Of a stretch of 64,000 nt of DNA, positions 40,792 to 47,743 are shown piece by piece (positions within the stretch are counted from its first letter, which is position 1; each line of letters starts with the position of its first letter). The translations under genes and the position numbers were made by a program. The stretch comes from Phyllosticta citribraziliensis (lineage: Eukaryota): contig NW_027117346.1 in assembly GCF_038025025.1 (NCBI RefSeq), positions 682,001 through 746,000 on the forward strand. The letters are read 5' to 3'. A model generated the notes under the pieces. It saw only the letters and a list, made by a program, of their open reading frames with translations. It made no database searches and was not told the origin of the DNA.

Positions 40792-43700
40792 CTACCCGCT
40801 ACCCTTCTCGACGTCTTGAGCGCACCCATCAGCATGAGAATTCTCAGGCTCGGAGTTTTGGTCTTCGCCATGAGAAGGATGCTGAGGTGGTGATGGTGGC
40901 GGTGGCGGAACATAAGTGCCGTAGTCACCGAGCTTGTTTCCTTTTATAAAGTGGCCCTTGACTCCGCGGACGCGATATAGGGCCCCCGTTTTCATGTTTC
41001 TCAGCTTCCGCGCTTCTTCGACCAGCCTTTTTAGCACCAGTCCACTCACCCGAACCTTACTGTCCATCACTTTCTTCTGTAAGAGCTCTTCCACCTCAGG
41101 CTCGCTCTCCATCTCTTCACTTTCAATGTCTTCGGCGTCCATTTCTTCGGCTTCCAGGTCTTTACCCTCCACCTCTACGCCCTCCATCTCTTCACCCTCC
41201 TGCTCTTGGCCTTCTGTTTCTTCGCTTTCGAGTCCTTCGTCGTCCATTGGTTCATCCTTCACCTCTTGATCGACCATCTCGTGGTCTTCCATAGCTTTGC
41301 TCTCCATCTCCTTGTCCTCCATCTCTTCAATTTCTTCTTCAACGCCTGCCACGTTCTCGCCCCGCTCATATCCGACCTCCTCCTCAAACCTTTCTTTGGC
41401 ACGGGCATCGAAGAGGTCAAGATCATCTGTACCGTCGTCGGCGGCGTAGAATATTTGATCATCGTCGTCGTCGGGCAGTTCGACCCGTTCTCCCAGGTCC
41501 TCGTCAGCGCTCAAGTATACGCTGCTGCTGCTTTCCCGTGACTGTGTTGTTTGGCTTGACCGTGGCTCGAGTTCTGGCGACCAACTCTCTTTAAAGTCTG
41601 ACGTCGGCTCAGCACGGTCTCGAGCAGTTGCTTTTCTCCCCACAAGATGATACTTGATGCCTTCAGTGGCTGCGCGTCTCATCTTAAGGAACGCCCTATC
41701 TGCGCCCTCTCGTATCGCAGCACCCCTTGACTTTGCTTTGACTTCATCCTTCTGGATCAGCACGCGATTATCCAGTAAAATTCTGCTGCTCCAGAGTCCC
41801 GTCTCTTCGTCAAAAAATGCATGGAATTTGAACTTATCGCGCAAGTCCGCGGAAACGTAGCGTAGCAGACGTGCACGTTGGCCACCACAGTTGACATTGT
41901 CGCGTAAGATCCGGTTGAGAATTTCCAGTAGGCCGAGTCTTTCAAGGAATCCTTCGCAGGCAGACATTCCAGCGGCTTGGCCATCCAGCGGGCTTGGGTC
42001 GTCGGCATCTGTATCTGTGCCCGCATCTGCGGCACCAGTGGATGAAGGCGCCGGATTCTGGGCCGAGTCAATGAAAATGGCGCCAAGGATGGCCTCTACA
42101 ACGTCAGAGGGGACCTTAGTGATGGCTTCCGATGGGTTGAAGAATTTCCAGGGAAAGACATCGTCATTTTGAAGCGCCTCCCAGATCTTGCTGCGCATCT
42201 CTTCGTGCTGGGCCTCGCTTTCTTTGAATGTTTGCATCAATGTAGGCGAAGAGTGCCGGATCCAGTGCCACAGCGCAGTGCGCTTATACTCGCCTTGTTC
42301 CTCTACTGTGGCCTCACCAGTCTCTTGGTCGACCCTGACGCGATGAATTGGCCGTATCTGCGCGCATTCAAAAACCAGAAAATTGAGGATCCCCTCGTTG
42401 ACAACAGCAGTCTTGACCGAGTGCATACTTCCCGGACTAAGCTCTTTTCCAAATGCATACACGCGACGGGAGACAAGCATGTCGAGTATCGAGTCGCCCA
42501 AAAATTCGAGCCGTTGGTATGAACTGGTTGGAATTCCGTAGGAGCTGTTGGCGCTGCCATGGGTTATGGCTTCGAGGAGAAGATAGGGGTTGTTGAACTT
42601 ATACCCTAGGAGTTCTTCGAGTTGCTCGAGATGGAGGGGCTTGCCAACTTGTTCGGCTTGCGAGGAGGCATAGCAGGCAAGAACCGAACGACGATCATCC
42701 ACCGATTTCCAAGAATAGAATGGAAGCAGAGTCTTGACGCAGCGTAAAACCTTGGGCATTCCGCCCTCGACGTATGCTGCACCAATCAGAGATTCGACCA
42801 CGTCGGCAAGCAGCTTAGAAGACGCCTTTCTCCTGGTAGTCTGTCGGGATTTGGCATCGGAAATGATGTTGAAAGCAGATCTAAGCTTCCAGTGCTTGTC
42901 TGAATTGAAAACCTCCTTGACAAGGAACTTGTCCAACCCGACATTCAGGGAAGCCTTTGTGAGAACACTGTTGGATACTATTTTATCTTTCCGTCTTGTA
43001 AGATAACTCTCCGGCCACGTCAGGTGCTCGGCATGAATATTCAAGCAAGTGATGAATTTGAGGATGGAATCTCCTAGATTTTCGAGCCGTTCATAGTCCA
43101 ACTCCATTGCGCCCGAGGCGCTGATGGCGCGAAGTACGAGTTTGGGATCATTGTATCTGATCTCTGCAAGGGTAGTCTTGCATAGCTGATCGGCAACCAT
43201 GAGCAGCTCCATTTGATGGAGGACGGGAGGTAGGCACCGCGCCAATATTGAGTATCCGAGCGGAATGCTGTCAACCAAACATTCGCTTGCTGGCCTGGAC
43301 TCAACCTTGCGCTTGTGCACCGCATTGTGGTTGTTATTCTTGAGAAGCACGAGACCTTTGGGCTTCGGACAAGAGGTCAGCTCCATGTTCAAAATCCCTT
43401 CTGTCTCGGAAAATCCTTTGAACCGATACCGTGGGCCCATGGGCTCGCTGCGCATAGAAACTAGTCCGATTGTTGGTTTCCCTTGGTTACTCAAGACTTG
43501 GTGAACATATTCGGCGGGTAGCTTTGCGCAAGTAAAAGCCCGACCTTCCCTTGGAATGGGGTCCACCCATCGTTCGCAAAGAACGACCGGGTTTTTTGGT
43601 TCCTCAACCTGGATGGCAGCAGAGGAAAGCAAAGCATATGTGGAAGCTTGCAAAGTTTCGACCGCCTCGACAGTATAAGTCACAGGTTCTAGGACATTGA

Positions 43701-46299
43701 ACCTCAGCGCGTGTGTCTCGCCCGTATTCCAGTACACCTTGAGCTCAGAAGGCGGTGCAACTACGGGGGCTGGGAGCGACATGACTATTTCAAAATATCC
43801 TTCCTCCAGCTCCAAGGAAATCTTGACGCGAGACCACTTCTTCTCTCCATAATTTTGGAGCATATCGGCGGCAATTGGCTCCCATGGGTCAACTCTGTCG
43901 GGAATCTGGAGGAGGGATGGTGTGTCGGCAAAAGGGTTCTTGTCGGCGTCGTTGAACGGATCATGGTCGGAATACTCTGTCAAGGGAAGTAGATTGTCGT
44001 TCACAAGCCCGGATTGATGAAGAGCCTTGTAAGCTTGAAATGCCGCAGCCTTTCTTGCACATCGTTCTGTTTTCCAGGCGCCTTCGCTTTCATGGTGTCG
44101 CAACTTGGCTTCAAGCACTGCAGGGAGATCCACGGAGGCGATAATGAGGCCCGAATCATCTTGTTTGAAGGAGAATTCTGGTCGTGGATCCATGTGAAGA
44201 GGTTTGAAGCCCAGCATTGAACAAAAATGATGGAGATGCTGTACACTGTTGTCGAGGTTGAGGGTTGCTCTGTTTGACTTTGGTCAGCTTCTGTCACTGT
44301 CACTACGCAAACAGCAGTGGCAAAATGGTTGCTTGTAACCTACCCTGTGCTTTCAATTCGGTATTCAAGATGGCCTTCTTCATCTTGCTGTTCTTGATCC
44401 TCTGCGCGTTCAATCTCTCGAAGATGATTCTGATAGACAGCTTGCATTTCCTCCTCCAGGCGAGTCCAATTCTCGGGTGATTTTACGAGCGGCGAATCGT
44501 TGGGGAGCATAATGACATATTTGGAGTCCTGTTTTCGTGCCCGCCCCCGGCGTTGGACAAACGACTTCATATTCGGTGGGGCATCAAAACAAATGACCGT
44601 GTTGCATGTCGATATGTCGATTCCTTCTTCCAACACGCTTGTCGAAATGATGAGATTCTTCTTGCCGGTCCTGAAATCGTCCAGAGTCTCCTCTTGCTGT
44701 TTGACACTGGCCAGGTCACAAAGAGCCAGGCTTGATTTGCGCTTGCCTGCTATAGACGACATTCCTACAAAAGTCCCGATGCTGAACAGCTCTCTAGTCT
44801 GAGGGTGATTGGCCAGTAGAAACTGCATTGCGACAACGGTCGCTCTTTGCGTGGCGAAGACGATGCAAGTGAAATCAGGTCGAGCCTCAGAAACAAGGAA
44901 CTGGATCAAGGCTTCCATTTTTGGCGGAATCCATTCGGTTTGATTGCGTGGACAGCTTTTGAGCTCAGAAAAGATGTTCTTCAAAACTTTTCCTTCCTCA
45001 TCTGACCAATCGGCAAACATCATACGCATTTTAGAGGCGTAGTTTCCGAATTTTTCGATGACACTTCTCACGTAAAAATCCGTCGCTGCTGCACCGAGCT
45101 CGTCGAAGATATTGAGAGCGTGGAGATAGAGTCTCTTCAGCTGATCATGAACGTAGGTCTTTCGATTTTGCAGCAACTCGGTCAATTCGTGGAAAGTTTT
45201 TTCTTGAGCATGGCCTGTTTCCTCTAGAGATCTTTGGCGAAGCGAAATAATGTAAGGATCTTGTTCGATGTCATACCCATAATATGCACGGCTTAGAGCA
45301 AGGAGTATGGGAGCAGGTTCTTCCTGGAGTCTTGATTCAGAGGCTTCGTAAGAGAGCTGGATCAGTACAGGTTTGTGCGTATACTGAATAAGCTCGGTGC
45401 GATGTGTTTTTGGAGCCATGGCCAATGCGTTGAGACTTTTTTCAATGACACTGGCCAGTGTTAGCGTTGGAATGATCAAGGAGGCTTTGAGGGTTACCCT
45501 AGATCTTTGCAGCTTGCACTCACCACGGGAGTAGCAGTTAGACCGAGAATGTGGGGGAGGGAGGTCTGCTCGTCGTGGAATCTGTTGGAGTGATAGAAGT
45601 CCTGCATGATTTTAGAGGCTGGATGTCTTCCTCTGCACATGTGAGCTGCCAAAGTCAGTCGTTGCAACAAGAGGCTCAAAGAGTGGGATTTGAAAGAACC
45701 TTCGTCAAATATAAGGAGGGCTATCTTGCTCATTTTGACAAAGCCATGGCTGAGTGCATCGTGTAGTATTTGTGGAGTAGATACAACAATGCGGGTGTCT
45801 TTCAACACGGCATCCCAAATGCCTTGGTTGCTCCAGGAGTCGACATTGTTTTTGCCACTGAGAAAGCGAAGCGTGTATGCCGGCAAGTATCTTTCAAACA
45901 GGCGCGCTTGCTGATCGCAGAGAGGGACTGTTGGTGCCAGGAACCATACTAGCTGCTCATATTGTAAGCTTTTTGCCCCATCATCATGGGGCCTAGAAGT
46001 GGACAAACCTTGTCAGGATCGCATCTCTGCAATTCGGTATCGGTTCGAGCAATGGCGCTGTTCACGTGTTACCTGAGTGATCTGGACAAGGTCCTGGAGA
46101 GCGTACATGTGTGTCTTTCCGCTTCCAGTGTCCATCTAAAGCCAAGGTCAGCAGCATTGACACAGCAAAGACCGGAAAGTTTGCGCACGGTTACGATGAT
46201 ATTCTGCTTCAAGCTCTCCTCTACCATTTCGGTCTGATATGAGCGCAGTCGGAAAGAGAACTGGCTCTTGAGCGGGGATGCACTGTTGACTTCAACCAT
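40792..46299 (-). CDS. DCL2: Dicer-like protein 2 (helicase, DUF283, RNase IIIa, RNase IIIb, dsRBD); alternative upstream starts at 46476/46470
   Basis: LRSYQTEMVEESLKQNIIVT/MDTGSGKT, LVWFLAPTVPLC, IFDE/AH, ILGLTAT, STSVLEEGID, VQRRGRAR, DUF283 (QHLHHFCSML...AAFQAYKALH..GL..DNLLP), RNase IIIa ERLENLGDS...LADVVESLIGA and RNase IIIb QRLEFLGDS...SDVVEAILGA. 6 introns inferred, and no obvious PAZ. Confidence 0.95.
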
Positions 46300-46717
46300 G
46301 GTGATTGTTGGGTTATTAGAGTAAGCTAGCCGACTGCTTGTAAAGCAACGAATTGTGGGAGCGGAGGCGCGTCGAAAGCTACAGCTTTTGGTGGAGGTCA
46401 CGGCGGCGCGAAGTCTGAGCGAACCGACATGTCGAGATGCAAGGAAAGCACGGGGGAACGTCCGCAGCATGCTCATACCATTGTTGCTTCGGGCCAAGGC
46501 GCGTGATGTTGTCGGGGACGGGGACGGGGACGGGACAATCGGAAATATTGTAGGTACCTTTTTCATGGTGCCTGGCAAGCGGCAAGGAAGACGGGAAAGT
46601 ACGCCCCGGCCGCCACCCGAAAGAGACCTCCGCTGACCCACCTGGCACCTCACGCGTCTCCCCGGCTCCAACCTGGACCCAACCTACATCATCTCTCCTC
46701 CCACCAGACCGCTAGCT

Positions 46718-47743
46718 ATGCCAGCGCAACCAAGTCGCGCGCGAAAATCCGCCACCACCGGCAAGCGCCCACGCGGGCGTCCTCCATTGCCGGCGAAATC
46801 AAATCCCCCAGTCGTTGCCAAACCAGCAGCAAACAAATCTTTCGGGAACAAGCGCCAACGACAGGTCGCGCCAGACCCTGATGAGGACGAATTGCAAGAC
46901 GAATCGGGCACGACTTCTCTGCACCGCCCATTGAAAAGGCAGCGCTCCGCACACGCGAACCATGACAGGAATCATTCGGCCGACGAGAGCACCATGTCGG
47001 CCAGAAGCCTGTCGAAGCCGCGTGTCAAGTTCCCCCATCTAAAACCGCAGACTCGAAACGTTCCAAAGTCCACGATTGCGTCCAAGTGGAAGGCTGCTCC
47101 GATTCCGGCTCAGCAGGCAGCTCGCAACCTGCTCGTCAACGCGAAGCGTGCCGTGATGCTGGACCGCCACGACAACAAGCGTCGAACAGAAGCCGAAATC
47201 AACCTCGCCTCGGTCCTGCGCAATCTCGAGAAGAAGCTACCTCGCGTGCCATTCCCTCCCCGCACAGGAGAATCACATTTCGATCTGGACAAGGTGATGG
47301 AGCACAACAGGGCGTTGGAAAACGACCTGACGCCGGCAATACATGCGGTTGAGCTTCTGGAAGCAGCTGTGGAGGAAGAGCGGGACCGACTGCATGAAGA
47401 TGGCCAACGTCTCGCAAAGCTTGAGGAAGACGCTCGAAAAGAAGAGAATTTCCAGAGGCGAGCTTTCAAAATGCATCCACTGTTGAAAGGGCCACATGCG
47501 GCTGCAAGTGATGGGCCGGACCACATCAGCTTGGTTGCGCCCAGGGATTTGGAGGACCAAGGCCGGACAGATTGGGTACATGACGAGGACGTGGAACCAT
47601 TGCTCGGTCAGCTCCGCGACCATGTTTCGTCGTTGAAGACGAACACGGCGCAAGTCGACGGCCTTGACGAAGCAATGGGCGATGGCTATGCGGCAGTGGA
47701 TGGAGCGTTGACAAAGTATGCGGCATGTGATACCCTGGGTTGA
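46718..47743 (+). CDS. Kinetochore protein CENP-Q/Fta7-like
   Basis: Intronless 341-aa ORF with a basic N-terminus containing an AT-hook-like RGRP. It continues LKPQTRNVPKSTIASKW, LEKKLPRVPFPP, coiled coil NRALENDL, HPLL and LLGQLRDHVSSL. Confidence 0.8.
   Translation: MPAQPSRARKSATTGKRPRGRPPLPAKSNPPVVAKPAANKSFGNKRQRQVAPDPDEDELQDESGTTSLHRPLKRQRSAHANHDRNHSADESTMSARSLSKPRVKFPHLKPQTRNVPKSTIASKWKAAPIPAQQAARNLLVNAKRAVMLDRHDNKRRTEAEINLASVLRNLEKKLPRVPFPPRTGESHFDLDKVMEHNRALENDLTPAIHAVELLEAAVEEERDRLHEDGQRLAKLEEDARKEENFQRRAFKMHPLLKGPHAAASDGPDHISLVAPRDLEDQGRTDWVHDEDVEPLLGQLRDHVSSLKTNTAQVDGLDEAMGDGYAAVDGALTKYAACDTLG

Follow-up and report, generated by a model that had tools for sequence, protein, structure and literature searches.

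A conserved basic N-terminal extension of Dicer-like protein 2 in Phyllosticta as a candidate mitochondrial presequence

The window analyzed here, a 64-kb stretch of the Phyllosticta citribraziliensis genome, contains a Dicer gene on its minus strand and, in divergent orientation, a gene of the CENP-Q family. Ordinary nuclear DNA makes up the remainder of the window; it carries genes for tryptophan synthase, a proteasome subunit, a RabGAP, CENP-S, SPO22/ZIP4, and a histidine kinase. Protein searches showed that the protein encoded at the Dicer locus is letter-for-letter a P. citribraziliensis protein, and its top named relatives were called "Dicer-like protein 2". In the public model P0123, Pfam detected an N-terminal DExD/H helicase (DEAD/ResIII and Helicase_C; PF00270, E 4.6e-19; PF04851, E 8.9e-18; PF00271, E 6.8e-18), a Dicer dimerisation domain (PF03368, E 1.5e-22), and two stretches of Ribonuclease_3 (PF00636, E 1.4e-33). 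PF26980, which is listed for most DCL2 homologues, was not among the entries for the models P0002, P0003, and P0004, and was absent on P0123 at E 0.01. Judged by its domains and best named matches, the enzyme is a DCL2-type Dicer, which bears out the first identification of the gene; the assignment to DCL2 over DCL1, made by best named matches, is tentative. Phyllosticta was represented by only three species among the best 120 of 525 DCL2 matches. The following features were delineated at the locus:

40792..46476, minus strand: whole coding region of DCL2, with a large 3' exon at 40792-44217
46136-46188, 46058-46106, and 45953-46008, minus strand: introns at the 5'-end of DCL2, given by CT..AC joints of RNA contigs
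46189..46299, minus strand: remainder of exon 1, from the inner ATG 46299 to the splice donor, with the start of the helicase domain (RSYQTEM)
46300..46476, minus strand: 59-codon N-terminal extension of DCL2, a candidate mitochondrial presequence, with M1 at 46476 and M3 at 46470
46398..46430, minus strand: out-of-frame ATG with a 10-codon ORF within the extension, which adds to the obstacles for leaky scanning towards 46299
46473..46481, minus strand: two-codon mini-ORF (ATG GTA TGA) in another frame, in the strong context gcaacaATGgt
46477..46566, minus strand: further open in-frame stretch to ATG 46566, the start of P0123, not conserved in relatives
46718..47743, plus strand: divergent neighbour, CENP-Q family gene (PF13094, E 8.4e-31)

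A sequence-only reading of this DNA had proposed that the Dicer frame remains open upstream of ATG 46299 to in-frame ATGs at 46470 and 46476, and translation of the minus strand reproduced this. The retranslated extension was identical to the quoted string: it is basic and acid-free (9 Arg, 1 Lys, and 0 Asp/Glu in 59 codons), rich in Ser, Thr, Ala, and Leu, and contains RCFTSSRLAY. ATG 46299 has the strong context ascribed to it (atcaccATGgt), which is the best of the local start contexts. Its description as the conventional start does not hold for the public P. citribraziliensis models, which begin elsewhere, P0002 at 46476 and P0123 at 46566. The end of exon 1 was also revised; according to the joints of RNA contigs it lies at 46189, and not at the codon boundary assumed earlier. 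Three features had been missed. The frame stays open beyond 46476 to a further in-frame ATG at 46566 (ggcaccATGaa), followed by a stop at 46684-46686, the stop codon of the mini-ORF that begins at ATG 46481 overlaps ATG 46476 in an ATGA-type stop/start overlap, and the 10-codon ORF begins at the out-of-frame ATG 46430.

The extension is present in both public models of P. citribraziliensis, in one of two from P. citrichinensis, and in six of the eight members of a P. capitalensis cluster, the remaining two of which are N-terminally short models. The long models of P. capitalensis and P. citrichinensis begin at the equivalent of 46476, and P0004, a public model of P. citrichinensis, begins at the equivalent of 46299. 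The starts of the two P. citrichinensis DCL2 models thus disagree. P0002 and P0123, which describe the same gene, differ both in their starts and in their splicing (44217-45760, minus strand), and more than 100 residues common to P0123 (1813 aa) and P. capitalensis are absent from P0002 (1677 aa). At the other end of the protein (40792-41700, minus strand), the Phyllosticta DCL2 carries a long, low-complexity tail rich in Glu and Asp, followed by a basic, proline-rich end, and through these additions it exceeds other DCL2 proteins in length by about 250-400 residues. The 5' region of the gene contains a (CCCCGT)n hexanucleotide repeat at about 46512-46536, inside 46477..46566.

None of the sequencing runs with the extension is catalogued as RNA; three of them, X1, X3, and X7, were classed as such solely by their contigs, from which the first three introns are missing at CT..AC joints (45952/46009, 46057/46107, and 46135/46189). 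Record 7 of X3, from the same species and with all three introns spliced, runs unbroken from 46189 to 46491 at low depth, and the mini-ORF at 46473..46481 therefore lies inside it. Record 20 of X7, from a close relative (organism C), covers 46189-46510 plus 27 more letters. Record 6 of X1, again from P. citribraziliensis, has no break from 46189 to past 47100 and spans both divergent genes; because the contig is unstranded, its gene of origin is ambiguous. No joint was found within 46300-46476 in these RNA contigs. Spliced mRNAs of two species thus include the extension, which contains no intron. Its junction with Dicer exons on spliced RNA rules out the case that the sequence-only reading had named as refuting its proposal, namely that all transcription start sites lie downstream of 46470. 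Contig ends and depths were not read as transcript starts or expression levels, and the end of the X3 contig at 46491 and the gap to 46645, where record 8 of X3 begins on the CENP-Q side, carry no information on the transcription start site. The ends of the DCL2 and CENP-Q contigs in X3 are about 150 bases apart (46491-46645); the deep X1 contig spans both genes, and their transcripts may therefore overlap.

The region ahead of the extension varies between relatives. By eye, the 27 extra letters of the X7 contig lack 17 letters of the repeat and resume at about 46569-46583; with about 29 letters missing, ATG 46566 would be deleted in organism C. In a further relative, organism B, the data (X6) comprise two related genotypes. 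The repeat region is 6 letters shorter in record 14 of X6, with indels of 1, 1, 3, and 1 letters at 46523-46536, and the alignment of record 15 jumps from 46443 to 46565, so that in this genotype the first 11 extension codons have diverged beyond alignment or been replaced, which counts against translation. Just after the inner methionine, a 33-letter in-frame insertion (11 residues; window position 46256-46258, minus strand) is present in the X7 contig and matches P. citrichinensis protein models. Within the N-terminal region of DCL2, variability is highest in the stretch with this insertion.

Comparison of the three species showed that the extension is conserved. It aligned with the N-terminus of the P. 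capitalensis protein end to end, with 26/59 identical residues, three one-residue gaps, and an E value of 9e-10. The two complete proteins are 54% identical (962/1776), and their alignment opens exactly at MSMLR/MRMLR. With the P. citrichinensis model P0131, 53/59 residues were identical and 6/59 were changed. Among 167 windows of 59 residues from the remaining DCL2, the identity of the extension ranked at the 43rd percentile for P. citrichinensis and at the 26th for P. capitalensis, and the indel-rich stretch just after the inner methionine was less conserved than the extension. The blocks best kept in P. capitalensis are the first ten residues (8/10 identical) and the last eight, the places at which import and processing would be expected to occur. 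Although 56% of the residues were replaced, the three species have R+K/D+E counts of 10/0, 10/0, and 11/1. Thus, where an open, acid-free upstream frame was to be looked for in orthologues, an open, acid-poor one was found, with no Asp or Glu in P. citrichinensis and a single Glu in P. capitalensis. The inner methionine, too, shifts by no more than one residue among the three species. In relatives whose exons are about 90% identical, the DNA immediately ahead of 46476 carries indels and then becomes unalignable. Between this species and its closest relatives, the differences listed inside the extension were mostly non-synonymous, 5/6 in X7 and 6/8 in record 14 of X6; this counts against translation, but is a count among listed differences and not a measurement. 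It is very probable, on the basis of this comparison, that the extension is translated, because a leader free of constraint would not still be read in one frame, without a stop codon and with 44% identity, at such a distance.

Outside the genus no counterpart was detected, which counts against translation. The N-terminus was recognisable in 41 DCL2 homologues, and of these only the Phyllosticta proteins have a long extension that is basic and poor in acidic residues; the other N-termini were short, acidic, or of mixed charge, apart from the 27 acid-free residues of P0027 from Tothia fuscella. A search of a representative set of 15 billion proteins with the extension returned the protein itself as the sole match, a word-indexed search for short fragments matched the extension in 0 of 42 candidates, a search of the ESM Atlas gave no usable match, and a Pfam search of the 59 residues found no family. 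A resemblance seen by eye in the N-terminus of P0027 (R-H-x-G-S) was rejected as homology because BLASTP did not align it to the extension. P0027 and two metagenome loci, L052:9605 and L069:10009, do have an acid-free, basic, in-frame stretch ahead of the inner methionine, for which no homology to the extension was detected.

How readily such a composition arises by chance was quantified in three ways. Among the stop-free windows of 59 residues in all six frames of the 64-kb window (n=3426), 5.3% were without Asp and Glu, and 1.9% were without Asp and Glu and had at least 10 Arg/Lys. When the stretch was shuffled 5000 times with dinucleotide composition preserved, the frame was open in 23% of cases, open without Asp and Glu in 2.4%, and additionally endowed with at least 10 Arg/Lys in 0.9%; the shuffles averaged 1.7 Asp/Glu and 7.4 Arg/Lys. 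The coding strand of the extension is pyrimidine-rich (C 63, T 44, A 35, G 35). A natural control was provided by 76 DCL-like metagenome loci with 46 distinct 5' regions, which were scored for an upstream in-frame ATG followed by at least 30 acid-free, basic residues before the inner methionine. Three of the 46 (L051, L052, and L069), or about 1 in 15, passed this rule, and the upstream frame of L051 is not conserved, as its relatives L025, L030/L031, L035, and L039 are without the upstream ATG. The basic, acid-free composition that had been put forward as evidence for a presequence is therefore real, but it is weaker evidence than claimed, since it largely follows from the pyrimidine-rich strand (0.9-2.4% of shuffles). 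Taken from one genome alone, the pattern is unusual, not rare, and it is the conservation between species that raises it above chance. Codon usage was also compared. The log-likelihood of the extension was -0.035 per codon, which corresponds to the 6th percentile of true coding windows and to the median of open non-coding frames, and GC3 was 0.54, compared with 0.62 in coding sequence. Both values count against translation; a presequence, owing to its unusual amino-acid composition, would receive a lower codon score in any case.

Mitochondrial matrix presequences are cleaved by MPP and trimmed by Icp55 or Oct1. The hydrophobic moment of the extension over 18 residues was ordinary (0.45; the null distribution has its median at 0.37 and its 90th percentile at 0.53). 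Over 11 residues it reached 0.74-0.88, and the maximum was located at residues 1-12 in all three species. Near the end of the extension the patterns R-x-(F/L) and R-x-(x)-Y-S were found with regular expressions written from the general consensus. The R-10 motif for processing by MPP and Oct1, which had been noticed in the P. citribraziliensis sequence, occurs in 2 of 3 species; it is absent in P. capitalensis, the only species with R-x-Y-S. The secondary structure that AlphaFold2 predicted for the 96 N-terminal residues was disregarded because the mean pLDDT was 39.8. A peroxisomal PTS2 was considered and rejected, as its consensus did not fit the extension by eye, and no lysine/arginine cluster of a classical nuclear signal was seen by eye. 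The size of the full-length Dicer-2, about 190 kDa, makes it a large import substrate and counts against import. Taken together, these sequence features give the extension about an even chance of being a working mitochondrial signal.

The sequence-only reading had also proposed two in-frame starts as a route to dual targeting. Several yeast tRNA-modifying enzymes and tRNA synthetases reach both the cytosol and mitochondria by means of two in-frame AUGs. In Phyllosticta, the inner ATG 46299 lies where other DCL2 proteins start, and it is for this reason most simply regarded as the ancestral start. The conserved position of the inner methionine agrees with the proposal, but plain leaky scanning to 46299 is unlikely because four AUGs precede it (46481, 46476, 46470, and 46430). 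Possible routes to a short form are a downstream transcription start, a very short leader, or re-initiation after the mini-ORFs, and the mini-ORF at 46473-46481 could conceivably tune the choice of the start site. ATG 46566 may also be on the mRNA in this strain, as the X1 contig covers the whole intergenic stretch; a start there would place 30 proline-rich, acid-free residues ahead of the signal.

Mitoviruses replicate inside mitochondria. The explanation that we favour, with a confidence that is about evenly balanced, is that a translated extension of DCL2, kept across the genus, acts as a mitochondrial presequence. The Phyllosticta DCL2 would have gained a genuine N-terminal extension, which is transcribed and very probably translated from the conserved ATG 46476. 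Its most likely function would be that of a mitochondrial targeting presequence that directs at least part of the Dicer-2 pool to mitochondria. The imported enzyme may reside in the matrix or be stalled at import sites, where mitochondrial dsRNA or replicating mitoviruses could in either case come into contact with its helicase and RNase III domains. The ancestral ATG 46299, with its strong context, was retained and may still yield a cytosolic form, provided that transcription can start downstream or that ribosomes re-initiate once they have passed the small upstream ORFs. A bolder version, which we hold to be possible but on the unlikely side, is that Phyllosticta re-addressed its only DCL2 to the mitochondrial matrix and thereby obtained an organellar, dsRNA-dicing defence against mitoviruses or runaway mitochondrial dsRNA.

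Three other explanations were weighed against the mitochondrial presequence. The extension might be translated and conserved and yet not be an import signal, but instead a disordered, arginine-rich tail of an enzyme that is cytosolic or nuclear; such a tail could bind RNA, carry regulatory phosphorylation sites, or modulate the helicase. We consider this rather unlikely. Several observations fit it: conservation shows constraint and not purpose, the amphipathicity is ordinary, the processing motif is not conserved, the P. citribraziliensis extension contains an R-R-x-S site, and DCL2 is regarded as cytosolic while mitoviruses are described as largely shielded from RNAi in a section of PMC7082362. 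A tail of this kind would not readily account for the location at the extreme N-terminus with the first 10 residues best conserved (8/10 identical to P. capitalensis), or for the avoidance of acidic residues that persists through 56% replacement. In addition, the extension matches no known Pfam domain, and by eye it has no lysine/arginine cluster of the classical nuclear type.

An improbable alternative is that the stretch is an untranslated 5' leader and that the protein starts at ATG 46299, the basic frame being a by-product of a pyrimidine-rich leader that gene predictors included by taking the longest ORF. The non-coding-like codon usage and GC3, the 23% of open shuffles with their few acidic codons, the 3/46 other DCL loci with the same pattern but without conservation, the superior context of ATG 46299, the start of P0004 at the equivalent position, and the small upstream ORFs, which are typical of leaders, all accord with this view. 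Against it, a leader should not keep 26/59 residues in one frame without a stop when the overall identity of DCL2 is 54%. Each of the two remaining frames contains 3 stops, and in its degree of conservation the extension equals typical parts of the enzyme. In closer relatives, indels appear and alignment is lost directly upstream of 46476, and a scanning ribosome would reach AUG 46476 and 46470 first. Less probable still is a start at ATG 46566 in this strain, which would yield an 89-residue extension (P0123) with 46476 as an internal codon and a species-specific, proline-rich tip. This ATG is in frame and in a good context, the frame is open, all 89 residues of P0123 are acid-free, record 6 of X1 covers the entire region between the genes, and by eye the RNA contig of a relative reaches the equivalent of about 46583. 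Against this start, the X3 contig stops at 46491, though its depth is low, and neither of the other two species has the stretch in its long models. By eye, organism C has lost the ATG, and an unstranded contig over two divergent genes does not show a single transcript.

The sequence-only reading had known of no comparable system, and a literature search likewise found no paper on a Dicer with a mitochondrial presequence; "mitochondrial Dicer" was encountered only as a model for mammalian cells, in a portion of PMC8138316. According to the relevant passage of PMC7082362, mitoviruses are largely sheltered from RNA silencing in the cytosol, and an excerpt of PMC9413294, citing Shahi 2019, states that mitovirus levels in Cryphonectria did not differ between the wild type and a dcl2 mutant. 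The only virus of the genus that came up in the literature was a partitivirus of P. citriasiana, mentioned in an extract of PMC6655640. Because public gene models already include the extension, its sequence is not new, only its reading. If this reading is true, a Dicer with a conserved, gene-encoded import signal would be a concrete host route into the compartment of mitoviruses, and in the bolder version would provide a dicing defence where fungal RNAi has been thought unable to reach. Should import prove not to be its function, the extension would remain a conserved, lineage-specific addition to an antiviral enzyme that evolves fast, and an example of how inconsistent choices of start codons in public gene models hide features of this kind.

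In comparison with known systems, the extension resembles cleavable matrix presequences trimmed by MPP and Icp55 or Oct1 in being N-terminal, arginine-rich, acid-free, and hydroxylated, with a possibly amphipathic first turn. It differs from them in its length of 57-59 residues, which is longer than typical, and in a putative cleavage motif that is not conserved among the three species. Dual targeting to the cytosol and mitochondria, as in yeast tRNA-modifying enzymes and tRNA synthetases, likewise involves two conserved in-frame AUGs that bracket a signal; in contrast, the Phyllosticta gene has two out-of-frame AUGs between and around the starts, and the second form is only putative. With other fungal Dicer-like 2 enzymes, such as Neurospora DCL-2 and Cryphonectria parasitica DCL2, the protein shares the DEAD/ResIII, Helicase_C, and Dicer dimerisation domains and two RNase III domains, but it adds the basic head of 57-59 residues and the long acidic C-terminal tail, and has a length of 1677-1830 residues, compared with about 1400 in the others. 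The proposed mammalian mitochondrial Dicer/AGO2 (PMC8138316, Figure 1B) also has Dicer acting inside mitochondria; it is one of two models in the portion of that article, whereas the candidate signal in Phyllosticta is encoded in the gene and conserved.
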